NCBI GenBank assembly: GCA_030596245.1
Contig: JAUVKN010000001.1
Span: 1 to 39,728, forward strand
Length of the DNA stretch: 39,728 nucleotides
Origin: Bacteroidia bacterium
GTDB taxonomy: Bacteria > Bacteroidota > Bacteroidia > Bacteroidales > GCA-2748055
Direction: 5' to 3'
In this document: positions 1,520 through 34,910 of the stretch, piece by piece
Layout of the letters: each line of letters begins with the position of its first letter
How positions within the stretch are numbered: position 1 is the first letter of the stretch
Program-made: the position numbers and the translations under genes
Notes under the pieces: model-generated
Seen by the model: the letters and a program-made list of their open reading frames with translations, nothing else
What the model was told of the DNA's origin: nothing
The model's database searches: none

Positions 1520-2554
1520 GTGAAATTGATCAAACCTTCTGAAATTTCTGCCAGGATTCTCACATTGCTCGATGAGAGTGATGAAAGGGTCATCATAGTA
1601 TCTCCCTATATGAAGATTTCGAAATGGTATAAGTTCATGAATAAGGTCAATGGATTGAAAACCAGGAGGATCCTCATAGAGATATATGTCAGGGACGACC
1701 CTGACAACACAGCCACCTATCGTGATCTGGATCAATTGGCACTGGAGTATAAAAAGATTCCTCACCTGCACAGCAAACTATACCTGAATGAAAGATACGG
1801 CATCGTAACTTCCATGAATTTGCTGCTAAGCTCTGAGATCAATTCCCTGGAAATTGGATATGCCACGGAAACCTGGACGGAATACAATGACTTGTTAGGT
1901 TTTTATCACAGGTATATCCACATTGGTGAACCGGTTCACTGTGATACAATAGCCGGCCGGCCGGCCGCAGACCTGAAAGAGATTATGCATAGCATCAGGG
2001 AAGAACTCAAAAGAACCTCGAAGAACTCATGGCTCTGGCTTGCGGAAAATGCGCTGCATATCAGCACTGGCCGGAATAACTACAGCGTTTCGATCAACGA
2101 CGGCTACCTGAGAATCACCGCTAGTTTGAGAATTGCTTCCGCAACAAAGCAGAAAAGCATTCAGCGCTCCTCATTGATCGCGAAAAAAGTCGGAGATCTC
2201 ACTGCCATGAAGGTCGATATGCATCCTGGTCCTAAGCATGGTCCTAAGCCTGGTCCTAAGCCTGGTCCTAAGCTTGGTTCTAAGCCTGGCCTTAAGCCTG
2301 GTCCTAAGCCTGGTCCTAAGCCTGGCTCTACGCCTAGTCCTAAGCCTGGTTCTGAGCCTGGCCTTAAGTCTGGTCCTAAGCCAGGTCTTAAGCCTGAAAT
2401 CCTACAACTATCCGGACAGGCACAACACACATTGAAAAGCACCTGCATCACCGGGATCCTGGAAGCTGAAGCGGATTACATGATGGAATCTGTAATAAGG
2501 TTTATTGATGCCACGGAGGATCTGGTATGTCAGGAAGCGTTTAATAGCTCATAA
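1520..2554 (+). CDS. Single-HKD phospholipase-D-superfamily (Nuc-like) protein with an internal (PGPK)14 low-complexity spacer
   Basis: 344-aa ORF with a GTG start at 1520; the upstream ATG at 1509 is out of frame and hits a stop. HKD-like motif HSKLYLNERYGIVTSMNL (HxKx4E...TSxN), preceded by 'VIIVSPYM', as in PLD-like nuclease domains. No signal peptide. A middle region follows, then 14 tetrapeptide repeats, then a ~50-aa C-terminal tail. Confidence 0.6.
   Translation: MKLIKPSEISARILTLLDESDERVIIVSPYMKISKWYKFMNKVNGLKTRRILIEIYVRDDPDNTATYRDLDQLALEYKKIPHLHSKLYLNERYGIVTSMNLLLSSEINSLEIGYATETWTEYNDLLGFYHRYIHIGEPVHCDTIAGRPAADLKEIMHSIREELKRTSKNSWLWLAENALHISTGRNNYSVSINDGYLRITASLRIASATKQKSIQRSSLIAKKVGDLTAMKVDMHPGPKHGPKPGPKPGPKLGSKPGLKPGPKPGPKPGSTPSPKPGSEPGLKSGPKPGLKPEILQLSGQAQHTLKSTCITGILEAEADYMMESVIRFIDATEDLVCQEAFNSS
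2225..2392 (+). repeat. 12-bp coding tandem repeat cctggtcctaag x14 (PGPK and variants)
   Basis: In frame with CDS 1520..2554. Reads PGPK HGPK PGPK PGPK LGSK PGLK PGPK PGPK PGST PSPK PGSE PGLK SGPK PGLK. Confidence 0.95.
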
Positions 2555-2907: not shown

Positions 2908-4329
2908 TCAGGATTTATCAAATCCTTTTCTTTCCATCCTGCCCCACGTGTTTCTTTTGAACAGTTTGTCGATATTTCCTTTGATGGACATTAGCATGAT
3001 CAGTGGATGGTAGAATATCGGTTCCAGGAATGCGGTACCGATCAGCCTGAATACATCCCTTCGCTTCTCATATTTATGGAAAGTGACCTCCTCGAACAAT
3101 ACGGACCAGATGGAGAGAGAAACAGCAAAAAAATAGACAAATCCAAACAATAGCAGGAAGAATGGCCAGTTCAGTTTCCCGGAGATCACCAGAAAGATGA
3201 ACCACAGGATTCCCAGGAATTCAATGATTGGGGCCAGGTACTCAAACATCAGCCAGTAGGGATATCCCAGCATTCCCAGTTTTCCATACCGTCGGTTGAA
3301 CAGGAGTTTTCTATGGATGATCAGCGTCTCCAGGGTCCCACGGGTCCATCGACTGCGCTGTCTTGCCAGCACTTTCAAGGTGGATGGCACTTCTGTCCAG
3401 CAGAGCGGATCGGGTATATAGACCACATCATAGCTCATGTTATTGTCGACCATATATCTCCTCATACGCACTACAAGTTCCATGTCCTCCCCCACAGTAT
3501 CGGTCCTGTAACCTCCTGATTGAATGACAATTTCACGATTGAACATTCCAAGGGCACCAGAAATAAGTAACAGACCATCCAACTCACTCCATGCCATCCT
3601 GCCCATCAAAAATGCCCTGGTATATTCCATGACCTGGGCCCTGGGCAAAAACTTCTTTGGAAGGTGTACCTTCTTAATATGTCCTCCCGATATCTCGCAC
3701 GAATTGGCTATTCGGATCACCCCACCTGCACCAATCACTTTTTTTTCCTTAGACTCAGTAAATGGCTTTACCAATTTAAGAAGGGCATCCGGTTCCATGA
3801 TGGAGTCAGCATCAATGCTCACTACGAGTTCGTTCTTGGAGACATTCAGTCCGGCATTCAGAGAATCTGCTTTCCCCCCATTCACTTTATCTATCACTGT
3901 CAGCTTTTTAAACGACCTGTTCTGTGACTTATACACCCCGCGTATCCGCTTGCAGGGCAACCGATAGTCAAAGTAGTAGTTGACCTTCTCCAACTCATAG
4001 GTTTCGATCATCTTCTCCAGAGAATCATCCGAACTTCCATCGTTGACCACAATTACTTCATAATTGTTATAGTAGAGCGATAGCAGGGTCCTGATATTAT
4101 CAAGGATGGTGCGGCTTTCGTTAAAGGCCGGAGCGATCACCGAAAGGGTTGGGGCCAGTGGGGAAGAGACGATGGAATTATAGTCCACATAGCTGTTTTT
4201 TCTCAGGTACTTCCTCAGAGAGATGGCCGAAAAAACAGTAAGTATCAGATACACGCTGAATATCAATGCAGTAATGATAAACACTGCATGCAGCACAAAA
4301 AACTTTAATATGTCAAACAATCCACTCAT
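2908..4329 (-). CDS. Membrane-embedded processive family-2 glycosyltransferase (PgaC/IcaA/BcsA-type polysaccharide synthase)
   Basis: 473 aa. N-terminal TM helix, then APAFNES...VVNDGSSD, SIDADS, GEDMEL and RQRSRW (the D, D, D, Q/RxxRW processive signature), then a C-terminal multi-TM region. The ATG lies 2 nt after the stop of the upstream gene. Confidence 0.85.
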   Translation of the reverse strand: MSGLFDILKFFVLHAVFIITALIFSVYLILTVFSAISLRKYLRKNSYVDYNSIVSSPLAPTLSVIAPAFNESRTILDNIRTLLSLYYNNYEVIVVNDGSSDDSLEKMIETYELEKVNYYFDYRLPCKRIRGVYKSQNRSFKKLTVIDKVNGGKADSLNAGLNVSKNELVVSIDADSIMEPDALLKLVKPFTESKEKKVIGAGGVIRIANSCEISGGHIKKVHLPKKFLPRAQVMEYTRAFLMGRMAWSELDGLLLISGALGMFNREIVIQSGGYRTDTVGEDMELVVRMRRYMVDNNMSYDVVYIPDPLCWTEVPSTLKVLARQRSRWTRGTLETLIIHRKLLFNRRYGKLGMLGYPYWLMFEYLAPIIEFLGILWFIFLVISGKLNWPFFLLLFGFVYFFAVSLSIWSVLFEEVTFHKYEKRRDVFRLIGTAFLEPIFYHPLIMLMSIKGNIDKLFKRNTWGRMERKGFDKS

Positions 4330-4331
4330 GC

Positions 4332-5594
4332 TTAATAGATTCGGCCGTCCAGTACGTGCCTGATAATGATCTGATAGTTTTTATACTCTGATTTTGATTT
4401 CATCAATTTAATGAGCATTGAAATACCTGGCTCATCGGTATTCTCCATGGCCTTGGTGGCGAGAATCTGCAGCTGCACATCCTCTTCCATATCCAGGACC
4501 GATTTCAGAAAGTTCAAATGCCGCTCTTCAGGGATCCTTGCAAATGCATTCAATATTTCAAGTTTATTCCTATTGGATTCCCCTTCATAGATCTTTTTCA
4601 TGGCTGGAAGTGAACTTTTCAACCTGAGTTCTCCGCATACCTTATATGCAGTGCGACGCACCTCATCGTTCTCATGTTCGAAAAGCCTGATTATGGCTGA
4701 CCCGGCACCCTTTTGTTTGAACCAGGAAACCATCTCCAGTGCAAAAATGAGCACACTGATGTTCTCCGATTCGAACCATTGTTTGAAAGCAGGCACCTTA
4801 AGGTTGTGCTGGATTAAAAGTTCATGAAGGGTAATCTGCTCCCAAATGGCCAGAGGTTTTTCCATGAGGTACAAGAAGTGGTATGGATTGTCGTCCGACA
4901 AACTTACCATGGCAATCTGAGCCTCCATCCTCAATATCTCATTGTTGGAGTTCAGGCTTTCTATGATCCTCTCATTGGCCTCCCTGATACCCATAAAGGC
5001 CAGTTCCCTGAATCCCTTCACATTTTCATGCCATTTCCTGCTGTAAGCTTTTTCAAGAGAATCTTTCATCAAACCCAGCAACAGGTAAAGCTTTTTAATG
5101 ACCTCCTTGATCTCTCCCTTCAGGTTGATGCTCAGGTCAATCATCTGATCGATGAGTATCTGACGGTTAAACTTATTGGAAGCAATCCGCTCCAGGTCCA
5201 TAAATGCATGATCCAATTTATCCTCTTCAAAGAGATAATCCATCAACTTTTGCTGGTACTCCTCTTTCAGGTACTCTTTCAATTTTTGCTCCCGCTGCAT
5301 TCTGCCCCTGTTCAGCAGGATAATAATCAGCAATGTAATCAGGGTCACAATCGAATAGAGGATCACCACGTACAGAATGGTAATGAAGAGAGAGGATTTA
5401 TCAAACTTCACCATGACCCGTTCCGAATAGCGGCTTATGAAATTATCCTCCTGAATGTTGTCATTGGCATAGACCGTTTCTGTGGAATCCTCTGTTTCGG
5501 GGTATACCGGGACCTGTGCTGAAACAAAAAACAGACCTATGGATACCACTATCCAGGGTAGCAAAAAGATCAGATATATTTTTAAACTCTTCAC
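4332..5594 (-). CDS. Two-TM inner-membrane protein with a cytoplasmic coiled-coil and HEAT/ARM-like repeat domain
   Basis: 420 aa. The GTG start overlaps the stop of the upstream gene (GTGA at 5591-5594). Hydrophobic segments are IYLIFLLPWIVVSIGLFFVSA and LFITILYVVILYSIVTLITLLIIILL. Then a charged helix (RMQREQKLKEYLKEEYQQKL) and repeated helical hairpins, e.g. LFEHENDEVRRTAYKVCGELR and VLDMEEDVQLQILATKAM, which look like HEAT repeats. Confidence 0.7.
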   Translation of the reverse strand: MKSLKIYLIFLLPWIVVSIGLFFVSAQVPVYPETEDSTETVYANDNIQEDNFISRYSERVMVKFDKSSLFITILYVVILYSIVTLITLLIIILLNRGRMQREQKLKEYLKEEYQQKLMDYLFEEDKLDHAFMDLERIASNKFNRQILIDQMIDLSINLKGEIKEVIKKLYLLLGLMKDSLEKAYSRKWHENVKGFRELAFMGIREANERIIESLNSNNEILRMEAQIAMVSLSDDNPYHFLYLMEKPLAIWEQITLHELLIQHNLKVPAFKQWFESENISVLIFALEMVSWFKQKGAGSAIIRLFEHENDEVRRTAYKVCGELRLKSSLPAMKKIYEGESNRNKLEILNAFARIPEERHLNFLKSVLDMEEDVQLQILATKAMENTDEPGISMLIKLMKSKSEYKNYQIIIRHVLDGRIY

Positions 5595-6766
5595 TTTATT
5601 ATTCGGATGTAAAATCCTGCCCTCAGGTCAAATCGATGACGGTACTCATCGACATCAAACTCTTCATAGGAGTAGCCGGTCATCACATTCAACCGAAGAA
5701 TGTGGTTGATCTGCTTCGAGTATTCGACCCGGCCTGACATGGCTCTCAGCCTGTCCAGATCTGACACAACCAGCAGTGGTTCGTCGGGAGCGGTACCATA
5801 TCCCAGTGTGAGTGAGAGGTAGTTGAATTTATCTTCAAAGTACCTTCTGGCACTCAGGTAGTAGGAACCTGAAACACCATAATCTTTAAAAAACAGATAA
5901 TTCCTGAAAGAGAACCAGTAATCACCGGCATATTTCTCTCCGGAAAATGTCAGGAAAGTAAAGTGTTGGTCCCAATAGAAGTAACGGAGTCCGGCCGACA
6001 GGGCAAAACCCTTCGGAAGCACCTGCCAGATCTCTGCTGCTGCCCTGTGTCCGGGCAGGTAATTGACTGCTCCATCTGGCGAGAATCCGTAGCCCGCCAT
6101 GGCATAGTTCTTTTTCCCAAGATTCAGGTAACCGTCCATGTTCAACTGAATGTCTGTGGAGGGATTGTCAACCCCCGCATGATACCCGCCATTCACATAG
6201 GGAGACAGGGTTCCCATCTTCAATGGTATATTTCCGCCGGCAGTCAGCATATGCCAGTTCCGCACATAGGGCTTGCTGAAATGGTCGTAGGAGTAGAAGA
6301 GGAAAAGCTCGGGCAGATCCTGTTTTGAGCCCTGCTGATATTTTGCCAGCAACTGTTTCTCCATGATTAACGGGGAGTCTGGTTCCAGCTCAAGGGCGCG
6401 GGCAGCATACTCTTCAAGTTTTGCCCAGTCGTTTTCCCAGTAAGCAAGATCCACACGGGTTTCATGTGCTTCGAAAAGATCGGGCTCCTTTGATAGCACT
6501 TTTTCAAGGATCATATAGGCCGAATCGTATTTGGCTTCCCACCCATATATCCTGGCCAGGTAGAGGGCCACATCAAAATAATCCGGGTTCTCATCCATGA
6601 TCCTGTGACCAATTGATATCGCTGTGGCATAGCGGTTCTCATTCGCATGTTCTCTCATCAATGCAAACCCAGCTTCAGGAGTGGCATAGGTTTCCTGCAG
6701 TTCCTGGGCAGCCAATTGATTCAGTAAAAAAAACAGAAAGATGGTCAGTGAAGTGAAATTACGCAT
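5591..6766 (-). CDS. Outer-membrane protein: N-terminal TPR-like repeats plus C-terminal beta-barrel (YaiO-like from memory)
   Basis: Signal peptide MRNFTSLTIFLFFLLNQLAAQE. I prefer the ATG at 6766; the track's GTG at 6775 is the alternative. TPR-like helices follow (YFDVALYLARIYGWEAKYDSAYMILEKVL, WAKLEEYAARALELEP). The remaining ~230 aa is rich in alternating aromatic/Gly strands (GYGFSP, SAGLRYFYWD, GSYYLSARRYF, LTLGYGTAP, MTGYSYEEF). Confidence 0.65.
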   Translation of the reverse strand: MRNFTSLTIFLFFLLNQLAAQELQETYATPEAGFALMREHANENRYATAISIGHRIMDENPDYFDVALYLARIYGWEAKYDSAYMILEKVLSKEPDLFEAHETRVDLAYWENDWAKLEEYAARALELEPDSPLIMEKQLLAKYQQGSKQDLPELFLFYSYDHFSKPYVRNWHMLTAGGNIPLKMGTLSPYVNGGYHAGVDNPSTDIQLNMDGYLNLGKKNYAMAGYGFSPDGAVNYLPGHRAAAEIWQVLPKGFALSAGLRYFYWDQHFTFLTFSGEKYAGDYWFSFRNYLFFKDYGVSGSYYLSARRYFEDKFNYLSLTLGYGTAPDEPLLVVSDLDRLRAMSGRVEYSKQINHILRLNVMTGYSYEEFDVDEYRHRFDLRAGFYIRIIK

Positions 6767-6774
6767 GGTACACA

Positions 6775-7137
6775 CTATGTTTTTTCAGCAACGGATTGGA
6801 CCATTTCGAGCAAGACATCCGGATCAAAAGGTTTGGTCAGATACCCTTTTGCTCCAAGTTCCAGGGCATGATCTTTCGTTTCATCCAGTGTAATACCTGA
6901 AATGATGATCACTGGGATTTTCGTTTCCATTTTGGTATTCACATAACGTACCAGTTCAAGCCCTTTTGTATAGGGCATATTAATATCAGTTATCACCAGG
7001 TCAATTTCTTCATTATCAAGTATTTTGATAGCTTTATCTCCATCTGCTGCCTCCAATATTTCATAACCACACCTGGCAAGAGAAAAAGCGATGGTCTTAA
7101 GGGCAATTGGATTATCTTCACAAACAAGTATTCTCAT
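6775..7137 (-). CDS. Stand-alone CheY-like receiver-domain response regulator (no output domain)
   Basis: MRILVCEDNP... DLVITDINMP (phospho-acceptor Asp) ... VIIISG ... YLTKPF (conserved Lys). 120 aa from the ATG at 7137; the track starts one codon earlier at a TTG. Confidence 0.85.
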   Translation of the reverse strand: MRILVCEDNPIALKTIAFSLARCGYEILEAADGDKAIKILDNEEIDLVITDINMPYTKGLELVRYVNTKMETKIPVIIISGITLDETKDHALELGAKGYLTKPFDPDVLLEMVQSVAEKT

Positions 7138-7163
7138 CAATTCTGTGGTTACAATAATAAAAA

Positions 7164-9803
7164 CTACTGGATGATCACCCGGTGCATCTCCTTTTCACTG
7201 TCAAAAATAATACTAAAGATATAAACACCCGGTACAACATCACCAATTCTTATCCCTGACGAAGCGTTTATTAATGGCTTATGAGCTATCTCTCTTCCGG
7301 TCATGTCGGTCACAACCACCGATGCGTTAACAAATGGCTGCAAAGACTTTATGAAAAAAATATCTTTCCCGGGATTTGGATATATGGTGAACCGGTTCCC
7401 TCCATCTCCAACAAGGGCCATCCCATATCCAAGGGGATATCCTACCCTGATATTCACAGGGATCAGGGTGGAATTGGTGTATCCGTCATTCAGGTAGTAG
7501 CTAAAGAGATCATCGCCCTGGAATCCCTCCACAGGATAATAGTTAAAGCTGCCATTGGGATGTAGATGAAGGGTGCCGTGACCAGGACTGTTCCCAAAAG
7601 AGAGTTCGGCACTCATTTCATTGCCATCGATATCAAAATCGTTGGCCAACAGACCCCCTTCCATTGCGATAGTCAGGTTACCTCCCGGGATTATCTCAAA
7701 GCTATCTGCACGTCCGATTGGCGGAGAATTAAACAGGGGTAGTTCCCTTTTCAAATAAAAAAATGATTGCTTCTTCCTTTCGATGGGTGGTTCATTCTGA
7801 ATCTTCTCATAATCCCAGAAATTCCAGGAATAGGCGTCACTTCGATAGAGCCCCCCAGCTCCAGCCACGGTAACAGCAATGCCATTTGTCAGTGTGTCCT
7901 CCTGCACCATCACTATACCATTACCATCGTGATAGGAGAGGTAATGCATGGCTCTCCTTACAGTTGGAGCCGGGAAATTGATCAGAGTCCATGGGATCCG
8001 GATCTCCAGACTATCGTTAAAAACTGTTACCGCATTGAGCAGCTGGTAAGGGTCATCCGAGCTGGAGATGTTCAATTTCCCGATGTATTGGGTAATATCA
8101 TAGGAGTAATTTGTTTTCCACCTTACGCGGTTCCAGATCCCCACATCACTGCTGGTGGAAACCACCGTATCGATCCTTACCGGGGCTTTAATCCCGTAAA
8201 CGTCATAGGAGGGAATCACAAACAGATCGGTCCTCTCTCCTCCAATGGGAATACTCAGGGCAAACTCTGCCCTCAACGTATCCACACCATCCCCTATGGA
8301 TACCCCATTGGGAAGAATCGATTCTCCAAGATCCCGTGCATAAGTGTCAAAAGCAACCCATAGCGTATCCCCTTGATGCATTTCTGTATCCATATAGAGG
8401 CGAACCCTGAAAAAAGTATAATCGGAAGATATCCTGATTTGTGAAACAGGTTCTCCTGGAAAAGATCCTGATTCCACGAATGGTTCAGGTGGCGGCGCAT
8501 AAGAAAGAATCCCGAAATTCTGTTCCGGAGATGTAATATTATGCCAGAGATGCCGGTACTCTTTGTCAGAATAAGGATTGGTGATCCACGTCTGTTTGAA
8601 CCATTCATCGATGAGTGAGAACTGAATACCGCCGGCACATCCTGATCCAAGGATATTGTCAAGCATCCTGATCGTATACCGGCCCTGCTCTTTTTCGGTA
8701 ATCCCCCCGTGGTGCATGCCTGTGGGGGACAAATGACCGCTGCCCCAGCTGGAAGGAACCCCAAACTCCGCTATCACAAGTGGTATTCCCTCATAGTGCT
8801 TTTTCAGCTCCTTCAGATAACCCAGGTAACCATTCGGACCAATGGAATCTGATTCAACACTGTAATAAGGGTCCTGGATGATGAAGTCGGGATAGTAGGG
8901 ATATGCGTGGTAACCGATAAAGAATCCGCCGGACGAATCGGATACTACCACATTGGCCAGATCAATTTTCTCATCATCTTCATGACTCCCGGCTATATTT
9001 TGTTCTGTGGGATGAACCAGCGGATCCAGGGTAGGCCATGTGGAAATGCCTGCAGGTCGCACTGTACCATAAAGATCCATTTCATAGATCATCAGGCTGT
9101 CAAGCCTCCGGGTAATCCATACCTCGGCAGGGTCCCCTCCACCGGAAAGATGGAAATAAGTGCCCTGGAATTCTGTTTCTCCGGCATGAGCCTGATTGGT
9201 AAGGGCTACTTCAGCAGGAAAGATCTCCCTGCCGATTAGAAATCCAACCACCCAGTTTGAGATGTTTGCGGTATAATTACCATAGGCCTTCCCGAACCGA
9301 TGGCCTATTTCAATATCTCCATGAACAGCGTTTACCACCTCCCTGATTTCATGATCGAACATGGCAGAGAGGTCATATAGATCTTTGGCGGATTCCTGCT
9401 CTTCCAGCCATACCCCCTGAATCAACAGCAAAGGATTACCCGGGTGATCCAGGTTATATTGATACAACTCCTCATAGAACCTGGGATAATGAAGTGTGTA
9501 GATCCGAATGGTATTATATCCGGCTTCTTTGACCAGGTAAAACCAACGCCTGTAATCCTCACGACTCGCAGCCAGTTGTCCGGGCTGAGTTCCAGGAATG
9601 GATACACCCATATTGATACCCTTGATGAATATCGGGATATACTCTTTCCCGTTCCAGATGGCAAATCGGTCATCCTTTATGGTGTAATCTCCTTTAAAGG
9701 AGTCTTCCATTCCTGAGGATACTTTGTGCTGAGAATAAACAGTCGACGAATTTACTCTGATAATCAGGATAATAAGCAATAGCGGAATCTGTTTCAATGT
9801 CAT
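7164..9803 (-). CDS. Secreted multidomain protein: clan GH-A-like (beta/alpha)8 glycosidase region, cadherin/VCBS-like domain and T9SS C-terminal sorting domain
   Basis: I prefer the start at the ATG 9803 (MTLKQIPLLLIILIIRVNSSTVYSQ is a signal peptide) over the track start at 9884. TIM-barrel-like motifs: FIKGINMGV, GYNTIRIYTLHYPRFY, VVGFLIGREI, PLVIAEFGVPSSWG (candidate nucleophile Glu), GGIQFSLIDEWFK. Cadherin-like: LLANDFDIDGNEMSAEL...GHGTLHLHPNGSFNYYPVEGFQGDDLFSYYLNDG. CTD: FTIYPNPGKDIFFI...PGVYIFSIIF...HRVIIQ. The GH family cannot be assigned by eye. Confidence 0.7.
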   Translation of the reverse strand: MTLKQIPLLLIILIIRVNSSTVYSQHKVSSGMEDSFKGDYTIKDDRFAIWNGKEYIPIFIKGINMGVSIPGTQPGQLAASREDYRRWFYLVKEAGYNTIRIYTLHYPRFYEELYQYNLDHPGNPLLLIQGVWLEEQESAKDLYDLSAMFDHEIREVVNAVHGDIEIGHRFGKAYGNYTANISNWVVGFLIGREIFPAEVALTNQAHAGETEFQGTYFHLSGGGDPAEVWITRRLDSLMIYEMDLYGTVRPAGISTWPTLDPLVHPTEQNIAGSHEDDEKIDLANVVVSDSSGGFFIGYHAYPYYPDFIIQDPYYSVESDSIGPNGYLGYLKELKKHYEGIPLVIAEFGVPSSWGSGHLSPTGMHHGGITEKEQGRYTIRMLDNILGSGCAGGIQFSLIDEWFKQTWITNPYSDKEYRHLWHNITSPEQNFGILSYAPPPEPFVESGSFPGEPVSQIRISSDYTFFRVRLYMDTEMHQGDTLWVAFDTYARDLGESILPNGVSIGDGVDTLRAEFALSIPIGGERTDLFVIPSYDVYGIKAPVRIDTVVSTSSDVGIWNRVRWKTNYSYDITQYIGKLNISSSDDPYQLLNAVTVFNDSLEIRIPWTLINFPAPTVRRAMHYLSYHDGNGIVMVQEDTLTNGIAVTVAGAGGLYRSDAYSWNFWDYEKIQNEPPIERKKQSFFYLKRELPLFNSPPIGRADSFEIIPGGNLTIAMEGGLLANDFDIDGNEMSAELSFGNSPGHGTLHLHPNGSFNYYPVEGFQGDDLFSYYLNDGYTNSTLIPVNIRVGYPLGYGMALVGDGGNRFTIYPNPGKDIFFIKSLQPFVNASVVVTDMTGREIAHKPLINASSGIRIGDVVPGVYIFSIIFDSEKEMHRVIIQ

Positions 9804-9830
9804 ATTGATCAAACAGTGATGGCAAGAAAA

Positions 9831-9838
9831 GTTTGTTG
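9831..9838 (-). promoter_or_regulatory. Candidate Bacteroidota sigma-A -7 box TAcaTTTG for the 2908-9803 operon
   Basis: The minus strand reads tacatttg, an exact match to the published TAnnTTTG consensus, 28 nt upstream of the ATG at 9803. It overlaps the 13-bp palindrome tttgttgaacaaa (9822-9834). No convincing -33 TTTG lies at canonical spacing. Motif only. Confidence 0.35.
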
Positions 9839-9888
9839 AACAAATGTAAGAAAATTGGTCCAGCAACCCTGATAAAATTTTCAACGAT

Positions 9889-11154
9889 TTATCCCAGGTC
9901 CCTGATCAGAAGCTCAATGTTCTGGACGCCCCGCTGTTCTAAAATCAACTCTTTGTTGATCATGACCCTTTCGATGGTGGAGTGGTCGAAGTATCGAATG
10001 GTGACAAGCTCCAGCCCCGTCTGGTAAGCCACCTTATATTTCTCCTCCAGTTCATCCACCACCAGCCTCAGTTTCCGCTTGTTATTGTTTACGATAATTT
10101 GAAAACTGATGGCTGAATTTTGCATCATGTTGATCTTCAGTCCGTGCTTATTAAGGATTCCGAAGATCTCCTCCAGGTTGTCCTCGTTGATAAAGGAGAA
10201 ATCGAGCGGTGAGGTACGGATCAATACCTGATCCATTTTAAAAATGAAGGATGGCGTCAGCTTGTCATAGGAGAGGTTCCCCACCAGTGTTCCGGGCGCC
10301 TCCGGATCCACAAAGGATTTTACATGCAGGTTGATGTTTTTATTCTGTAGTGGTTTTATGGTTTTCGGATGAATGACGCTGGTCCCAAAATAGGCAAGTT
10401 CGATGGCATCCAGGTATGACAGCTTCTCCAGCAGTATGGTATCATCGAAATATTTGGGATCTGCATTGAGCACCCCCGGCACATCTTTCCATATGGTTAC
10501 ACTTTTTGCCCTCAGCATAAAGGCCAGTATGGCTGCTGTGTAATCCGATCCCTCCCTTCCCAGGGAGGTGGTCTGGTCATTGATGGTGGAAGCCAGGAAG
10601 CCCTGGGTAATCAGGATCCGCTCGCCATTGAAGGTAAATTGCTCATTGACCAGGTGGGAAGAGAGTTCCCAGTCCACACGCGCTTCACGCCAGTTGTTGT
10701 CGGTTTTTAGTGCCCGGCGGATATCCATCCACCTGGTTGCAACACCCGATTTATTCAGAAAATGGCTGATGATGGTGGTGGAGAGCAACTCCCCGTAACA
10801 GATCAACTGATCATAATCGTAGTCATAATTCAGGGTGGGCTCCTTGGTTAGTCGGTCGAAGAGCTCCTCAAACACCTCGTTCACATTAGCAAATACCAGG
10901 TGATCTTTATCTTCAAAGAGTCCATTCACGATATCCAGGTGGTAGGCCTTTAACTGTTTATACTCATCCCGGAGGTCTTCCTCTCTCTTACCTGCATAGC
11001 ATTCGATGATCCGCTCAAGGGAATTGGTGGTTTTCCCCATGGCAGAAACCACCACCACGATCTCTTCATTCTGGAAACGTTGAAGAATTTCAACAATATT
11101 CTTCACTGCGCCTGCACTTTTTACAGAAGCGCCACCAAATTTGAATACAAACAT
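9889..11154 (-). CDS. Aspartate kinase
   Basis: 421 aa. MFVFKFGGASV...VVVVSAMGKTTN...GREGSDYTAA, with a C-terminal ACT-like region. Confidence 0.9.
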   Translation of the reverse strand: MFVFKFGGASVKSAGAVKNIVEILQRFQNEEIVVVVSAMGKTTNSLERIIECYAGKREEDLRDEYKQLKAYHLDIVNGLFEDKDHLVFANVNEVFEELFDRLTKEPTLNYDYDYDQLICYGELLSTTIISHFLNKSGVATRWMDIRRALKTDNNWREARVDWELSSHLVNEQFTFNGERILITQGFLASTINDQTTSLGREGSDYTAAILAFMLRAKSVTIWKDVPGVLNADPKYFDDTILLEKLSYLDAIELAYFGTSVIHPKTIKPLQNKNINLHVKSFVDPEAPGTLVGNLSYDKLTPSFIFKMDQVLIRTSPLDFSFINEDNLEEIFGILNKHGLKINMMQNSAISFQIIVNNNKRKLRLVVDELEEKYKVAYQTGLELVTIRYFDHSTIERVMINKELILEQRGVQNIELLIRDLG

Positions 11155-11186
11155 TCTGATACGGTTTTAATTCGTAAATTGAGGCT

Positions 11187-11194
11187 CAAAATTA
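11187..11194 (-). promoter_or_regulatory. Candidate -7 box TAatTTTG upstream of aspartate kinase
   Basis: The minus strand reads taattttg (exact TAnnTTTG), 33 nt upstream of the ATG at 11154. Motif only. Confidence 0.3.
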
Positions 11195-11221
11195 ATCATA
11201 GCAAAGATCTTAAAAAAACAG

Positions 11222-11593
11222 ATGAAGGTAATAATCAGTTTTGCTACTTACCAGGTTGAAGCGGAATTGTATGATACGCCCACAGGCCGGTCTATTTATG
11301 CAGCATTGCCCATTCAACGGAATGTAAACCGTTGGGGTGATGAAATCGATTTCGAGATCCCTGTTCAATCGACCCTGGAAGCAGATGCAAAGGCAGAGGT
11401 CTCTGTGGGAGAGCTGGCGTACTGGCCCAATATGCCCGCCTTCTGCATTTTCTTTGGTGCAACCCCGGTTAGCACAGGAAACACACCGGTGGCAGCAAGC
11501 CCGGTAAACGTGTTCGGGAAACTTTCAAAGATCGATTTAGAGAAACTCCGACGGATCCCTGACGGTGAGAATGTGGCTGTAGAGGTTGGTTAA
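11222..11593 (+). CDS. Cyclophilin-like fold protein (Cyclophil_like family)
   Basis: 123 aa. ...AELYDTPTGRSIYAALP...WGDEIDF...GELAYWPNMPAFCIFFG...VNVFGKL matches my recollection of the PF04126-type family. Confidence 0.65.
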   Translation: MKVIISFATYQVEAELYDTPTGRSIYAALPIQRNVNRWGDEIDFEIPVQSTLEADAKAEVSVGELAYWPNMPAFCIFFGATPVSTGNTPVAASPVNVFGKLSKIDLEKLRRIPDGENVAVEVG

Positions 11594-12723
11594 AGCTCAA
11601 GTCTGATCATCCGTGCTATCCGCTCCCCGGTCCTTTTCAGCAGCTCCCCGGCATGCCTGATGGCAAAGTCCAGTTCAGATGGTTTTTCCAGAATGGGCAG
11701 GATTACATTAAATCCCATCTGGTACAACACCTCACTCCCCTCCTCCAGGGTCCCGGCAATTCCTATCACCGGTTTCCCATGTTTTTGGGCCAGTTGAGCC
11801 ACACCAAATGGAGTCTTCCCAAACTGGGTCTGACCATCCATTTTTCCCTCTCCGGTAATCACCAGATCGGCTTGCATGATTTTCTCTTCAAGACCCACTG
11901 TCTCCGCAATCATATCGAAACCCTTCATCAACCTGGCTCCCAGAAAAGCCATCAATCCGGCTCCCAGTCCACCTGCAGCACCCGCACCGGGCACATGTGA
12001 TATCTCTTTTCCCAATTGTTGCCTGATGAGCTCTGCAAAATGTTCCAGGTTATGATCCAGTTTTTTTACCATATCCCTGTCAGCTCCCTTCTGGGGTCCA
12101 TAGATTGCCGAAGCACCTTCGGGGCCGGTCAACGGATTGGAAACATCACATGCCACCAAAATATCCAAATCTGCAATTCTGGGATCCAGACCCTCCATGT
12201 GGATCCTTTCCACATCACCCAGAGCTCCACCTCCAGGTCCGGATGAGATCTCTCTGCCGCAGGTAAACTTTACCCCCAGAGCCTCCGCCATTCCCGCTCC
12301 TCCATCATTGGTGGCACTGCCTCCAATCCCAAGCAAGAGCTTTTTACAACCCCTTTCCATGGCATTTTTTATCAGCTCACCGGTGCCAAAAGTTGAAGTC
12401 ACCCAGGGATCTCTTTCTCCAGGTATTAACAACTCAATCCCCGAGGCAGCTGCCATCTCTATGACAGCAGTGGAACCATCTCCGGTGATCCCATAAAAAG
12501 AGTTGATCTCACGCATTAATGGATCTTTTACAATCCACTCAATCCGTTTTCCACCTGTGGCATCTATGACCGATTCCACAGTTCCCTCTCCACCATCAGC
12601 CATAGGCGCAATCTGAAAATCGGTTTCGGGCATGATTCTCTCTATCCCCCGTCTGAGGGATATGGCTACCTGACGGGCACTCATACAGTCCTTAAAAGCA
12701 TCGGATGCAAGTAAAATATTCAT
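11590..12723 (-). CDS. Glycerate kinase
   Basis: 377 aa. MNILLASDAFKDCMSA...APMADGGEGTVE...GGSATNDGGAGM...VITGEGKMDGQT aligns by eye with GlxK/GarK. Confidence 0.9.
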   Translation of the reverse strand: MNILLASDAFKDCMSARQVAISLRRGIERIMPETDFQIAPMADGGEGTVESVIDATGGKRIEWIVKDPLMREINSFYGITGDGSTAVIEMAAASGIELLIPGERDPWVTSTFGTGELIKNAMERGCKKLLLGIGGSATNDGGAGMAEALGVKFTCGREISSGPGGGALGDVERIHMEGLDPRIADLDILVACDVSNPLTGPEGASAIYGPQKGADRDMVKKLDHNLEHFAELIRQQLGKEISHVPGAGAAGGLGAGLMAFLGARLMKGFDMIAETVGLEEKIMQADLVITGEGKMDGQTQFGKTPFGVAQLAQKHGKPVIGIAGTLEEGSEVLYQMGFNVILPILEKPSELDFAIRHAGELLKRTGERIARMIRLEL

Positions 12724-17871: not shown

Positions 17872-18612
17872 ATGAACCTTGTTCTCGACCTTGGAAATAG
17901 TTTTGGAAAGATCGCTGTTTGCGAAGGCACCCAGGTGATTGAAGCTGCCACCTACGAAAAAGTCACCAGCAAGGAGATAGCCTATTTTCATGCCCGTTAT
18001 GCAGGCCTGAAAGGAGCAATTATCTCTTCGGTGGTGAATTACTCCAGAGAGATCATCGACTACCTGAGCAACCTCTACAACACCTGTATCGAGCTGGATC
18101 ACTCCACTCCAATTCCCCTGAAAAACAGGTACCGAACCCCGGATACCCTGGGTTACGACCGAATTGCTGCTGCAGTAGGGGCATATACTATTTGTCCGGG
18201 TAAAAACGTTCTGGTAATAGATGCCGGAACGGCCATCACCTATGATATTGTTACATCGAAAGGTGAATACCTTGGGGGAAATATATCCACGGGCCTGGAA
18301 ATACGGTTTAAATCACTGAACAAGTACACCAACCGTCTGCCACACCTGGAACGTCCCAATGAGCAACCACCTCTATTGGGAACCAGTACCAGGGAGGCCA
18401 TCCAATCGGGCATCGTGAACGGATTGCTGTTCGAGATGGACGGATTCATTGGCGCCTTTAGTCAGGACCACCCTACATTACAGGTGGTTTTAACGGGGGG
18501 AGATGCAAAATACTTTGTAGGAAAGTTAAAAAGTAGCATCTTTGTGGACCTGAATCTGAACCTGATCGGACTTAACAGAATACTGGAGCACAATGCATCT
18601 GAGAAAATATAG
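17872..18612 (+). CDS. coaX: Type III pantothenate kinase
   Basis: 246 aa. MNLVLDLGNS...GYDRIAAAVGA...VIDAGTAITYD...GGNISTG... typical CoaX/ASKHA motifs. Confidence 0.85.
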   Translation: MNLVLDLGNSFGKIAVCEGTQVIEAATYEKVTSKEIAYFHARYAGLKGAIISSVVNYSREIIDYLSNLYNTCIELDHSTPIPLKNRYRTPDTLGYDRIAAAVGAYTICPGKNVLVIDAGTAITYDIVTSKGEYLGGNISTGLEIRFKSLNKYTNRLPHLERPNEQPPLLGTSTREAIQSGIVNGLLFEMDGFIGAFSQDHPTLQVVLTGGDAKYFVGKLKSSIFVDLNLNLIGLNRILEHNASEKI

Positions 18613-19906
18613 AAACCTGATTGTAACTTTTCCTGTCACCCTTATTATCACCCTTCTTGTCACGACACCACTGTTAAGCCAGTTCAATACCTATTCACCT
18701 TACACCCGGTTTGCACTGGGTGACCTGGCAAAACCGGGAATCGGACAGAACCAGGCCATGGGAGGCACCGGTCTTGCCATTCATGAAAACAACAGGATCA
18801 ATTACCTGAATCCGGCTTCCTTCTCAGCCCTTGACAGCACTTCGGTCTACTTTGATTTTGGGGCCAATACTTTTCACAATGAGTATAAGACAGAACAACA
18901 TACCAATACCTGGTGGAACATGAATCTGCACCATGTGGCGTTTGCCTCTTCCATGGGCAAATACTTCGGAGTTTCTGCAGGAATTATTCCCTACAGCAGC
19001 ATCGGGTACAACATCAAACAGGAATATAACGATTATATAAACGGAGAGGCAATGGACACCTATTATAAAGGGGATGGGGGTATCATGAACTTTTATGTGG
19101 GTACTGCGGTGAAACTATTCGACCAGATCTCTGTGGGTGTTACCATGAACTATCTGATGGGGAGACTTACCCGGGAACGCCAGGTGGATTTTCCAACAAA
19201 CTCAGCCTACTCATCCATCTCTACGCAAGAGGATTTCGATCTCAGGAAACCAATTTTCAGTTTTGGCTTACAATACAATAAGGTCATTAAAGATAAGTTT
19301 TTCTTTACCCTTGGGGGCATATACGATCTGAAAACCAATGTTAATGCCAATTTACAATACGAGGCTGTGAATGAAATCTACCCATTTGATACGATCTCAA
19401 TCAATGATCAATTGATCCGCCCCGCATACATCCTTGGACAGGACACCACCCTCAGAAGTTTTACCATCCCCCAGAAAAAAGGTGTGGGCATCGCGCTGGG
19501 CATACCCAACAAATTGACCGTTACAGGTGACTATTACATGCAGGACTGGACAGGTTCTATGTCAGGGGAAAACTATACCACCACCAATGCCACATCCATG
19601 CATTTTGGCGCTGAGTATACCCCTGATGCTGAAGCCCTAAGAGGTTTTCACAAGCTTATGACATACCGTCTTGGAGGGTATTACTCCAACTACTATCTGC
19701 AGGTGAACGATACCCAATTGGAAGACTATGGCATAACTTTTGGACTGGGGTTACCGATAAGAACCATGAAATCGAGCATAAATGTGGCTTTCACACTGGG
19801 CACCAGGGGTACTACCGAGTACAATTTAGTGGAAGAAAATTATGGAATTATTACATTTAATGTAACTTTACACGATCTGTGGTTCCGGAAACGGAGATTT
19901 GATTAA
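18593..19906 (+). CDS. Predicted outer-membrane beta-barrel protein (unassigned family)
   Basis: 437 aa. Signal/TM N-terminus (LIVTFPVTLIITLLVTTPLLSQ) and Gly/aromatic alternating strands throughout. Overlaps the coaX end by 20 nt. Confidence 0.55.
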   Translation: MHLRKYRNLIVTFPVTLIITLLVTTPLLSQFNTYSPYTRFALGDLAKPGIGQNQAMGGTGLAIHENNRINYLNPASFSALDSTSVYFDFGANTFHNEYKTEQHTNTWWNMNLHHVAFASSMGKYFGVSAGIIPYSSIGYNIKQEYNDYINGEAMDTYYKGDGGIMNFYVGTAVKLFDQISVGVTMNYLMGRLTRERQVDFPTNSAYSSISTQEDFDLRKPIFSFGLQYNKVIKDKFFFTLGGIYDLKTNVNANLQYEAVNEIYPFDTISINDQLIRPAYILGQDTTLRSFTIPQKKGVGIALGIPNKLTVTGDYYMQDWTGSMSGENYTTTNATSMHFGAEYTPDAEALRGFHKLMTYRLGGYYSNYYLQVNDTQLEDYGITFGLGLPIRTMKSSINVAFTLGTRGTTEYNLVEENYGIITFNVTLHDLWFRKRRFD

Positions 19907-19926: not shown

Positions 19927-21282
19927 ATGAAAACTAAAATCCTCAAAACCATATTCTTGGCGATACTGTCCCTTTTGTTTATTCTGCCCGCCAGTTCACA
20001 AAAAGGAATTGAGGACGGATCCAAATACGGTAAAGGTCAGGATAGCATCAATTGCATCAAGAACCTCTCACTTTACAGAGAGTTTTTTAAGCACAGCAAT
20101 TACAAGGATGCCATTGGCCCATGGCGGGGAGTGTTCGGCGAATGCCCTGCATCAAGCGAACGGATGTATGTTGAAGGAATTACCATGTACCGCAGTTTCA
20201 TTGAGTCAGCTTCCGACCCTGTAAGGAAGGATGCCCTGATTGACACCATGTTGCTCATTTATGACAGGCGCGCCAAGTATTATGGGGGGGAAGGGAATGT
20301 CCTCGGAAGAAAAGGGATCGATTTGCTTCGCTACCGCAGACTTGATAGTGAAGGCAGTCCTGATGTAGATGCTATGGAAGAGGGTTATGGCTATCTGAAG
20401 CGGAGCATTGAAATCCAAAAAAGTAAGACCAGGGATGCAGTAATGGTCACGTTTATTTCAGCAAGTATCTCCCTGAACAACTTTGAAAGAATAGAGGACA
20501 ATCAGGTAATTGATGATTACTTTATGGTAACTGCCATCATTGATAAGCTACTGACTAAAAGCTCCCGCTGGCCACGTGCCAAAGGCCTCATCGATGACAA
20601 CATGCTGAAAAGCGGGTTGCTTACATGTGAGGCACTGAATGGCTATTTTGAACCTCAATACCAGGCAAATCAGGATGACAAGGAGTTCCTTGAGAAAGTA
20701 ATCACATTCTATACGGCCGCAGGATGTGACCGGTCTGATCTTTATGTGACAGTCTCTGAAAAAATGTACGAAATTGAACCGGGCCCTAAGTCAGCACACA
20801 ACCTGGCCATCCTGTTTATAGCCAAAAATGATTTCCATAAAGCCGCTCAATATTTAAAGGAAGCTGTGGTGGGTATCGACATAGACAATGCCACAAGAGC
20901 AGACTGGTTCTATGAACTGGCCGTTGTGAGCAGTGCGAACAAAGATTACTGCGATGCAATTATCTACGCAAAAGAGGCCGTTGCCAATAAAAGTAATCAT
21001 GGCAAAGCTTATATTATCATGGGGGATGCAATTATTGCTTCCCGTGACAGACTGGGGGACGATTTTGAAAAGAGCACTGCCTTCTGGGTTGCTGCTGACA
21101 AATACACCAAGGCCAAAAGTGTAGATCCCAGTGTAACTGCTGATGCCAATAAAAAGCTGAATAATTATGCCGGTCATTATCCCAACCACGAAGAGGTCTT
21201 CTTCAGGGACTTAAAAGATGGCGATTCCTACCAGGTAAAGGGGTGTATAAACGAGTATACCACCGTAAGGTCAAGGAAATAA
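19927..21282 (+). CDS. Secreted helical-repeat (TPR-like) protein
   Basis: 451 aa. Signal peptide MKTKILKTIFLAILSLLFILPASSQ. Helix-rich with TPR-like blocks (AAQYLKEAV, DYCDAIIYAKEAVA, GKAYIIMGDA). Function not recognisable. Confidence 0.5.
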   Translation: MKTKILKTIFLAILSLLFILPASSQKGIEDGSKYGKGQDSINCIKNLSLYREFFKHSNYKDAIGPWRGVFGECPASSERMYVEGITMYRSFIESASDPVRKDALIDTMLLIYDRRAKYYGGEGNVLGRKGIDLLRYRRLDSEGSPDVDAMEEGYGYLKRSIEIQKSKTRDAVMVTFISASISLNNFERIEDNQVIDDYFMVTAIIDKLLTKSSRWPRAKGLIDDNMLKSGLLTCEALNGYFEPQYQANQDDKEFLEKVITFYTAAGCDRSDLYVTVSEKMYEIEPGPKSAHNLAILFIAKNDFHKAAQYLKEAVVGIDIDNATRADWFYELAVVSSANKDYCDAIIYAKEAVANKSNHGKAYIIMGDAIIASRDRLGDDFEKSTAFWVAADKYTKAKSVDPSVTADANKKLNNYAGHYPNHEEVFFRDLKDGDSYQVKGCINEYTTVRSRK

Positions 21283-27533: not shown

Positions 27534-27545
27534 GGGTTCAGTTTT

Positions 27546-28877: not shown

Positions 28878-28881
28878 AGTC

Positions 28882-33515: not shown

Positions 33516-33544
33516 TTACATTTGCTCCATTTGCGTTTTTTATT

Positions 33545-34891: not shown

Positions 34892-34910
34892 AGGGTTTCT
34901 CTAGTTAGAT

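Follow-up and report, generated by a model that had tools for sequence, protein, structure and literature searches.

Organization of the gene cluster

The subject of this study is a cluster of five genes in a 39,728-nt stretch of DNA (hereafter the window, meaning that whole stretch) from a member of the Bacteroidales, class Bacteroidia (GenBank assembly GCA_030596245.1, contig JAUVKN010000001.1, positions 1 to 39,728, forward strand). In the open reading frame (ORF) list of the window, five successive minus-strand ORFs lie between positions 2908 and 9803. A preliminary description had read them as a compact five-gene operon for synthase-dependent exopolysaccharide secretion with a non-canonical parts list. 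From the evidence presented below, the locus is very probably a dedicated polysaccharide synthesis and export unit. The predicted products and their parts, in the order of the coding strand, are the following.

7164 to 9803, minus strand: secreted accessory enzyme of 879 aa, with a signal peptide, a (β/α)8 domain, a β-sandwich, a Big_9/cadherin-like domain and a type IX secretion system (T9SS) tail
8484 to 9686, minus strand: predicted (β/α)8 catalytic domain of this enzyme (about residues 40–440; AlphaFold model)
7167 to 7385, minus strand: T9SS type-A C-terminal sorting domain of this enzyme (residues 807–879; PF18962, Por_Secre_tail, E 1.2e-07)
6775 to 7140, minus strand: stand-alone CheY-type receiver, 121 aa from TTG 7140 (ATG at 7137); Response_reg, E 2.1e-27
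5591 to 6775, minus strand: outer-membrane protein of 394 aa, with a signal peptide (LAA/QE site), TPR over about 110 aa and a β-barrel of the YaiO type (about residues 159–394)
4332 to 5594, minus strand: bitopic HEAT protein of 420 aa, with a signal peptide (VSA/QV site), a transmembrane (TM) segment and a cytoplasmic HEAT/ARM solenoid
4335 to 4412, minus strand: nearly invariant C-terminal tail of the HEAT protein (residues 395–420), ending in YKNYQIIIRHVLDGRIY
2908 to 4329, minus strand: processive family-2 glycosyltransferase (GT2) of 473 aa, with an N-terminal TM segment, a GT-A domain, a QRSRW motif and a C-terminal TM bundle

The genes nearly abut or overlap. The hydrolase-like gene stops with TAG at 7166–7164 and the receiver gene starts at TTG 7140 or ATG 7137; the receiver gene in turn ends with TAG at 6777–6775, next to the possible barrel starts GTG 6775 and ATG 6766. 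At 5594–5591, the sequence GTGA joins the barrel TGA to the GTG of the HEAT protein gene, whose TAA (4334–4332) is followed after 2 nt by the GT2 ATG at 4329. On direct re-reading of the sequence, the ORFs, junctions and motifs given in the preliminary description were all correct.

A processive synthase and its HEAT-repeat partner

The GT2 matched the Pfam models Glyco_tranf_2_3 (E 3.3e-23), Chitin_synth_2 (E 9.4e-10) and Glyco_trans_2_3, and NodC was also among its family matches. Its top NCBIfam model was PgaC_IcaA (TIGR03937), at 131.6 bits and thus below the equivalog cutoff of 422.3 bits, compared with a CelA score of 43 bits. Among the E. coli synthases compared by BLASTP, PgaC was the nearest (26% identity over 328 aa, E 3e-28); the BcsA alignment covered GT2 residues 4–413 (E 1e-7), YaiP aligned with the GT-A domain alone (27%, E 3e-10) and the matches to NfrB were not significant. 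The sequence contains VNDGSSD, SIDADS, GEDMEL and RQRSRW, as had been noted, and D97, D173/D175, G280-E-D282 and Q324-R-x-R-W328 are invariant in 70/70 orthologues. Hydropathy bore out one N-terminal TM helix and a C-terminal hydrophobic bundle. The invariant motifs and the similarity to PgaC and BcsA, which includes TM regions, argue for a processive membrane enzyme and not a non-processive one. The GT2 is thus predicted to be a membrane-embedded processive synthase with every catalytic motif intact, and its TM bundle could form a translocation channel.

The protein encoded directly upstream of the GT2 had a single domain match, HEAT_2 (Pfam, E 3e-10). Its AlphaFold (AF2) model (mean predicted local distance difference test score, pLDDT, 77.3) comprises a signal-peptide helix, a disordered and variable stretch of about 25 aa, a short conserved helix (residues 52–64), a long TM-plus-cytoplasmic helix (residues 68–122, the TM part being about 68–95) and an α-solenoid that extends to about residue 385. 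The fold belongs to the peptide-binding ARM/HEAT class: Foldseek and PDB profile searches returned designed ARM/alphaRep proteins and importin-α and nothing else, so that no partner protein of a polysaccharide system was among these matches. There are at least 1413 homologues, and the exact sequence had no match in the contig index.

The tail of the HEAT protein is nearly invariant. The final 17 residues, YKNYQIIIRHVLDGRIY, are identical or nearly so in 79/79 complete Bacteroidales orthologues, down to 46% overall identity, and the tail has a pLDDT below 50 in the isolated model. Low confidence in isolation is what a segment that folds on a partner would show; the tail may be such a segment, the likely contact being the GT2. 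A PilZ-like or I-site-like reading of the tail motif RHVLDGR was dropped, as the motif fits neither RxxxR nor RxxD.

A receiver in the proposed place of a cyclic di-GMP receptor

In the receiver, E8, D9, D52, S/T81 and K103 are invariant in 70/70 orthologues, so that the acidic pocket, the phospho-acceptor Asp, the Thr/Ser and the Lys of CheY-like receivers all appear to be in place. Pfam found no output domain; a receiver of this kind would have to act by contact with another protein. No match to PilZ, GGDEF/I-site, MshEN or GIL was found in any of the five products with Pfam and NCBIfam models, and the cyclic di-GMP (c-di-GMP) receptor typical of synthase-dependent systems thus seems to be missing from the locus. 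The earlier proposal that a CheY receiver takes the place of such a receptor stands as far as gene content goes, and its regulatory part is the portion that we infer.

A YaiO-type barrel and a secreted hydrolase-like enzyme

The outer-membrane protein passed both curated cutoffs for YaiO-family membership (Pfam YaiO, PF19413, E 3.4e-33, 115.5 bits against a cutoff of 23.9; TIGR04390, OMP_YaiO_dom, 92.5 bits against 32) and also matched TPR_19 and TPR_14. The short TPR-plus-barrel protein that had been proposed is therefore found as one 394-aa product, and the locus appears to supply the TPR scaffold and outer-membrane barrel expected of the synthase-dependent class, with a barrel type unlike those of PgaA, BcsC, AlgE and PelB. 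BLASTP similarity to E. coli YaiO itself was not significant. Counted by eye from the conservation profile, the barrel has about 12–16 amphipathic strands. The predicted cleavage sites of the barrel (LAA/QE), the HEAT protein (VSA/QV) and the large secreted protein (VYS/QH) all expose Gln, in agreement with the Q-rule of Bacteroidetes signal peptides described in PMC5837995.

The 879-aa enzyme combines an N-terminal hydrophobic segment and VYS/Q site with a sorting domain at its extreme C-terminus, as T9SS type-A cargo does. The sorting tail scored 39.6 bits against TIGR04183 (cutoff 23), and its profile matched solved T9SS C-terminal domains in the PDB at E 7e-10; Big_9 occupies residues 692–781 (Pfam). 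By contrast, residues 1–690 gave no Pfam, NCBIfam or PDB sequence match, whether searched as a single sequence or as a profile, and no Pfam domain covered the N-terminal region in any of more than 2,400 homologues. The family of the catalytic domain numbers 1,287 relatives among 50%-identity cluster representatives.

Structure was more informative. An AlphaFold (AF2) model built from 21 homologues (pLDDT 77.8, predicted template-modelling score, pTM, 0.79) showed a (β/α)8 barrel and, after it, a β-sandwich. The best Foldseek match was a distant one, the Labilibaculum GH157 (glycoside hydrolase, GH, family 157) endo-β-1,3-glucanase (E 2e-11, 13% identity, TM-scores 0.34/0.43); next came GH2 enzymes, the GH72 transglycosylase Gel4 and a GH5 enzyme, and neither GH153 nor GH20 appeared in the top 50. 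In the model, Glu193 (in GRE) directly follows β4, and Glu346 (in AEFG) is found where β7 ends; both are invariant in the 21 homologues and present in 58–59 of the 59 orthologues taken from the loci described below. This arrangement is the acid/base and nucleophile geometry of clan GH-A, and the two residues are the catalytic candidates. The label 'glycosidase-like' is accordingly upheld by the predicted fold, which supports a clan GH-A-like hydrolase, and finds no counterpart in sequence matches.

T9SS export, which had been presented as a property of the hydrolase, is borne out for this organism and not for the family. In a more distant Bacteroidales clade, the enzyme has a signal peptide and N-terminal Ig-like domains and lacks a C-terminal sorting domain, which makes T9SS export a local, clade-specific feature. 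At one locus (L045, 12494–15244, minus strand), the enzyme carries an internal, N-terminally placed T9SS sorting/FlgD-Ig-like domain at about residues 114–170 (CHU_C and FlgD_ig scored just below cutoff), and no sorting domain was found at its true C-terminus.

Conservation of the cluster in Bacteroidales

A scan of one genome per GTDB species yielded 254 loci with a relative of the HEAT protein. The best 80 of these, all from Bacteroidales/Bacteroidota metagenome-assembled genomes, were analyzed, and the counts that follow cover the loci whose contig extends far enough. Beside the HEAT gene, in fixed order and on the same strand, we found the GT2 gene in 71/71 loci, the barrel gene in 69/69 and the receiver gene in 69/69, an outcome that agrees with the co-occurrence which the preliminary description had set as a test. 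The quartet is kept across two clades with unrelated flanks. No further conserved neighbours were detected; the other ORF families were antisense shadows, plus a common Gfo/Idh/MocA-type oxidoreductase at variable positions. The tight or overlapping junctions, the fixed order and the lack of any other conserved neighbour argue that the genes form a unit.

Of 51 loci, 41 had the hydrolase gene near the cassette: 17 carried it upstream and on the strand of the core genes, and 24, in another clade, carried it convergent and just downstream of the GT2 gene; it was missing in 10. Because of these absences and the two placements, the hydrolase appears to be an accessory, and the conserved unit would consist of four genes (receiver, barrel, HEAT protein and GT2). 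The five-gene operon originally proposed thus describes the tight run of genes in the window and not the conserved core. In seven close-clade loci (L001, L004, L008, L013, L016, L028 and L031) there is no hydrolase gene and an aspartate-kinase gene abuts the receiver gene, so that near relatives differ by a clean loss or gain of the accessory enzyme.

The arrangement is identical in the cultured species Mangrovibacterium diazotrophicum, and M. lignilyticum, Gaoshiqia sp. and Sunxiuqinia sp. encode homologues of the HEAT protein. Among uncultured Bacteroidales, those of sediment and soil commonly have the cassette; cultured Prolixibacteraceae (the three genera just named) carry it too.

Divergent loci and gene fusions

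A metagenome scan with a GT2 alignment added at least 568 further loci, of which 80 were kept; their ORFs were called stop-to-stop with strict thresholds and examined with local hidden Markov models (HMMs) and Pfam checks. On these contigs of unknown taxonomy, encoding GT2s 41–56% identical to that of the window, the HEAT and GT2 genes again occur as a pair, usually with a receiver gene nearby. In approximate counts, a HEAT/ARM protein was encoded directly upstream of the GT2 in 25/31 loci according to Pfam and in 42/57 according to the local HMM. A receiver domain was found upstream in 40/50 loci by local HMM and was not seen in the other 10, and Pfam detected Response_reg in 15 of 24 next upstream genes (second or third). 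Some loci also have Hpt and GGDEF domains, and YaiO or TPR proteins are present in variants. Approximate as they are, the counts indicate that the TM-HEAT protein and the GT2, usually with a receiver, are the ancient core, and that barrel and hydrolase are add-ons.

Fusions join the same parts in other ways. Among 30 proteins sampled from the 1,287 relatives of the catalytic domain, nine have the hydrolase domain flanked by TPR arrays, three have it fused to a CE4 polysaccharide deacetylase, and two show a weak match to the BcsC barrel, one of them (P0414) being TPR-flanked. A single protein (P0406) is a fusion to a GT2 that is 44% identical to the GT2 of the window over 460 residues. The order in P0406 is GT2, one extra TM helix, hydrolase domain, so that the extra helix would place the hydrolase domain outside the cytoplasm.

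The genomic surroundings were read at three loci. Locus L085 encodes a PAS histidine kinase, a receiver, a HEAT protein and a GT2–hydrolase fusion, the kinase gene overlapping the start of the receiver gene; the order kinase, receiver, HEAT, GT2 recurs in L115. Locus L087 has genes for a HEAT protein, a GT2 and a TPR protein, a convergent gene for a hydrolase–CE4 fusion, and a GH16 neighbour. In L089, a hydrolase and a GGDEF-receiver protein accompany a HEAT–GT2 fusion encoded as one 949-aa protein. At positions 7265–12147 of that locus, directly upstream of the fusion gene, lie genes for an ODP/metallo-β-lactamase-like protein and an ODP-GGDEF-receiver protein. These neighbours suggest that some family members are coupled to c-di-GMP and perhaps also to a di-iron sensor of the oxygen or nitric oxide type. 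Since some relatives carry a CE4 deacetylase or a GGDEF-receiver protein, the statements that there is no modifying enzyme and no c-di-GMP component would hold for the window locus and not for the whole family.

Adjacency, translational coupling and natural fusion together make the HEAT protein, by all appearances, an obligate partner of the GT2. The suggestion that a bitopic HEAT protein fills the slot of PgaD or PelD can thus be strengthened: the protein is bitopic as described, and its relation to the synthase would be more than positional.

A model for the locus and its alternatives

With a processive GT2, neighbours that are conserved in every locus counted and no match in the literature searched, the reading of the locus as a synthase-dependent exopolysaccharide system with unusual parts is supported. 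Judged from sequence, we consider it probable that the locus encodes a secretion machine of an undescribed type, gated by two-component phosphorylation and not by c-di-GMP. In such a machine, the GT2 would polymerize a β-linked glycan from a UDP-sugar and thread it through its own C-terminal TM bundle. The HEAT protein would sit beside the synthase as a docking and gating subunit, its TM and juxtamembrane helix in the membrane and its solenoid and invariant tail on the cytoplasmic face. The receiver, phosphorylated by a histidine kinase encoded elsewhere, would bind the HEAT solenoid and switch synthesis on; receiver and HEAT protein would thereby do the job of the c-di-GMP receptors (the PilZ domain of BcsA, PgaD, PelD, Alg44 and the MshEN domain of NfrB). 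In the periplasm the TPR domain would take the chain, which the YaiO barrel would pass across the outer membrane, and outside the cell the surface-exposed hydrolase or transglycosylase would trim, release or remodel the polymer. The gating step from receiver to HEAT protein is the most tentative element and falls somewhat short of probable, the binding being purely inferred.

The hydrolase would belong to this pathway, given that its adjacency survives rearrangement, that it is fused to GT2, CE4 and TPR domains in relatives and that its Glu pair is invariant. As to the product, a polymer containing N-acetylglucosamine (GlcNAc) is indicated by the GT2 families closest to the synthase, which use UDP-GlcNAc, and by the CE4 fusions of relatives; a β-glucan is indicated by the nearest folds of the hydrolase and by the GH16 neighbour in L087. 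We slightly favour a GlcNAc-containing β-polymer.

Several observations weigh against a phosphorylation-gated secretion machine. Neither the window nor the surroundings of the Bacteroidales loci encode a histidine kinase, and no receiver–HEAT fusion was seen among the loci examined. The GGDEF-receiver protein beside the HEAT–GT2 fusion in L089 leaves room for c-di-GMP sensing by the HEAT domain in some lineages. On the export side, the barrel is small with an uncertain strand count, and we know of no YaiO protein that has been shown to export a polysaccharide. The fold match of the hydrolase is a distant one, and its gene is absent from 10/51 loci. The environmental counts are approximate, since ORFs were called crudely, the home-made HEAT HMM is weak and few loci were sampled with Pfam. 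More generally, all of the evidence is computational (sequences and models), and polymer, phenotype and transcript are predictions.

Some of these points would be explained if the exporter were the same and the HEAT protein served as a scaffold for structure or assembly, a role proposed for PelE, or bound a different ligand as its receptor, c-di-GMP for instance, with the receiver acting elsewhere (it might be a phosphate sink or have the barrel, the T9SS or motility as its target). This is the strongest of the alternatives, and we regard it as unlikely. HEAT folds are generic scaffolds, and the missing receiver–HEAT fusion, the GGDEF-receiver protein of L089 and the lack of a visible receiver in 10/50 environmental loci with enough upstream sequence all fit it. 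What it leaves unexplained is the adjacency of the receiver in 69/69 Bacteroidales loci and its frequency in divergent ones. Moreover, a receiver that lacks an output domain acts by protein contact, and the gene order of L085 and L115 puts it in the same transcription unit as the HEAT and GT2 genes.

Less probable again is a divergent Pga system, with the GT2 as an orthologue of PgaC that produces poly-β-1,6-GlcNAc (PNAG) and the other genes as lineage-specific replacements. PgaC_IcaA is indeed the top curated family for the GT2, and PgaC the closest E. coli synthase, but the score falls far below the equivalog cutoff and the locus has no homologue of PgaA, PgaB or PgaD. NodC and Chitin_synth_2, which also match, use UDP-GlcNAc, and relatives have CE4 deacetylase fusions; the locus itself, however, encodes no deacetylase, whereas PNAG export in Pga depends on PgaB. 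The hydrolase fold, too, is nearest to the β-glucan-active clan GH-A, with no GH153 or GH20 among its top 50 matches.

It is quite improbable that the GT2 builds a periplasmic or membrane-anchored glycan (of the osmoregulated-glucan type, or lipid- or protein-linked) while barrel and hydrolase serve the uptake or turnover of external glycans. YaiO-family barrels have no demonstrated export role, T9SS-secreted hydrolases resemble many nutrient-acquisition enzymes and the hydrolase is missing from 10/51 loci; however, a TPR-plus-barrel protein beside a processive GT2 is the hallmark of synthase-dependent export, no SusC/SusD or transporter genes lie near the cluster, and the hydrolase domain is fused to synthase, CE4 deacetylase and TPR scaffolds (one with a weak BcsC-barrel match). 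That the adjacency is merely inherited synteny with no functional meaning can be dismissed: the close clade does keep an unrelated aspartate-kinase gene upstream, but the quartet persists where all flanks differ (distant clade, Mangrovibacterium, environmental contigs), three independent fusion types join the parts, and start and stop codons overlap or nearly abut.

A broader claim can also be entertained, although it is more doubtful still than the gating step. The receiver–HEAT–GT2 triad would represent a large unnamed synthase family, switched by docking of the phosphorylated receiver on a HEAT/ARM co-subunit, and no synthase-dependent system before it would have had a phospho-relay, in place of c-di-GMP, as its gate; the hydrolase would represent a glycoside hydrolase family that Pfam does not model.

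Candidate promoters and flanking sequences

Two copies of the motif TAnnTTTG deserve mention as possible promoter elements; the promoter role of this motif is presumably that of the published Bacteroides consensus.

9841 to 9848, minus strand: TACATTTG, candidate −7 promoter element of the Bacteroidota type, within the 85-bp gap upstream of the cluster and 38 nt ahead of ATG 9803
7202 to 7209, minus strand: TATTTTTG, second TAnnTTTG motif, in the 3′-terminal part of the hydrolase gene; the receiver ATG follows about 64 nt downstream

The first is the exact TAcaTTTG motif of the preliminary description, found as TACATTTG at 9848–9841. Taken alone it is weak evidence. Enrichment in the window was dropped as an argument, because TAnnTTTG occurs 17 times against 22.6 expected. 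In 11/23 related loci, a TAnnTTTG motif nevertheless lies 10–80 nt upstream of the orthologous hydrolase gene, against an expectation of about 0.026 per stretch, which makes TACATTTG a plausible but unproven promoter element. Upstream of the receiver gene, at the same distance, the motif was found in 7/25 and 6/44 loci. Where the hydrolase gene is missing, transcription must begin upstream of the receiver; TATTTTTG as an internal promoter for the four-gene core is, however, a speculative assignment. A scan of the window with sigma-70 promoter and terminator models gave background levels, such models not being meaningful for Bacteroidota.

The cluster is flanked by an aspartate-kinase-like gene and a gene for an unannotated repeat protein. 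No deacetylase, epimerase or acetyltransferase is encoded within or adjoining it in the window, as had been stated, and no SusC/SusD or transporter genes were found nearby.

Downstream of the GT2 stop at 2908, the gap at 2607–2724 holds 9.8 tandem copies of the 12-nt unit GACAAAATCCCA (91% matches). This non-coding array may act as a terminator or spacer, or it may bind proteins. The convergent ORF beyond it (1520–2554, plus strand, 344 aa) had no Pfam match at 1e-5 and was not kept beside the cassette in any related locus; at 2225–2396 it contains 14.3 copies of the 12-nt unit CCTGGTCCTAAG, encoding a low-complexity tract of the PGPK type.

Farther away, two adjoining plus-strand ORFs of 437 and 451 aa (18593–19906 and 19927–21282), with no Pfam match at 1e-5, have a type III pantothenate kinase gene on one side and an LptC-like gene on the other. 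A run of minus-strand ORFs at 26097–39709, opening with FtsZ (26097–27533) and FtsA (27546–28877), is probably a division/cell-wall (dcw) cluster, these two genes being the ones checked.

Comparison with known systems

Synthase-dependent systems (cellulose, PNAG, alginate, Pel, Nfr) are a textbook route to biofilm polysaccharides and, to our knowledge, c-di-GMP is the switch in every well-studied Gram-negative one. A full-text literature search, with most subscription journals outside its scope, found no description of the present cassette, in keeping with the earlier remark that no characterized system has this combination of parts. In the source records, the proteins are annotated in general terms ('HEAT repeat domain-containing protein', 'cellulose synthase/PNAG synthase-like glycosyltransferase', 'Ig-like domain-containing protein'). 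With BLASTP, the five products had no match to E. coli PgaA, PgaB or PgaD at E ≤ 1 and no meaningful match to NfrA, NfrB or YbcH.

The E. coli Pga system resembles the cluster in having a processive GT2, which is its nearest characterized relative, a gene for a small partner membrane protein beside the synthase gene, a TPR-plus-β-barrel exporter and a polymer-processing enzyme. It differs in that the partner is the 137-aa PgaD instead of a 420-aa HEAT solenoid protein, that the exporter is the 807-aa PgaA instead of a 394-aa YaiO-type protein, that the cluster has no deacetylase and that control here would apparently be exerted by the receiver and not by c-di-GMP. By sequence, resemblance of the synthase is the only link to Pga that was found, and even this stays below the equivalog cutoff.

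The Bcs system (BcsA-BcsB-BcsC-BcsZ) is comparable in synthase architecture, in its TPR-plus-barrel exporter and in its dedicated glycoside hydrolase; the cluster, by contrast, lacks PilZ and BcsB and has GED instead of TED in the catalytic loop. The Nfr system (NfrB-NfrA-YbcH) is, by annotation, a similarly minimal set of GT2 synthase, TPR-plus-barrel exporter and one accessory protein. However, NfrB is not significantly similar to the GT2 and is annotated with its own c-di-GMP-binding C-terminal domain, which is of the MshEN type; NfrA has 990 aa, and Nfr has no HEAT partner, receiver or hydrolase.

With the Pel system of Pseudomonas aeruginosa (PelA-G) there is analogy only. PelE is an inner-membrane α-solenoid (TPR-like) scaffold by the glycosyltransferase, PelA combines hydrolase and deacetylase, and PelB combines TPR and barrel; the hydrolase–CE4 and TPR–hydrolase–TPR fusions among relatives of the present enzyme recall these arrangements. 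PelF, however, is a soluble GT4 and not a membrane GT2, and regulation is by the c-di-GMP receptor PelD. A stand-alone receiver that serves exopolysaccharide production is known in EpsW of Myxococcus xanthus. The window receiver scored 57.7 bits with the NCBIfam EpsW model, far under the cutoff of 200, and the M. xanthus exopolysaccharide is made by a Wzx/Wzy pathway and not by a GT2 synthase.

The yaiS-yaiP-yaiX-yaiO cluster of E. coli K-12 shares with the window locus a GT2 (YaiP) and a YaiO-family barrel encoded on one strand, both barrels matching the YaiO model. In that cluster (L082; NC_000913.3, 380069–384616), the yaiS deacetylase, yaiP GT2, yaiX acyltransferase (split by IS2) and yaiO barrel genes lie on the same strand, and they look like a decayed, never-characterized synthase-type polysaccharide locus; the yaiO literature consists almost exclusively of its use as a PCR marker. 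It differs from the window locus in that YaiP is of another GT2 lineage, that YaiO has no TPR domain, that a deacetylase and the IS2-disrupted acyltransferase are present and that HEAT protein, receiver and GH-A-like enzyme are missing.

Set against these systems, what is new here would be an obligate HEAT co-subunit, probably the regulatory input, a barrel type that has not been studied and a hydrolase domain outside the Pfam models. If the model is correct, a system built on the HEAT co-subunit and phospho-receiver brings with it a regulatory logic and a type of synthase partner that are both new. A candidate function would then be at hand for the YaiO-type barrels, among them the product of the E. 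coli yaiO locus, long without explanation, and for a domain family of about 1,300 clusters that Pfam does not model. The cultured Prolixibacteraceae that carry the cassette open this hypothesis to direct testing.

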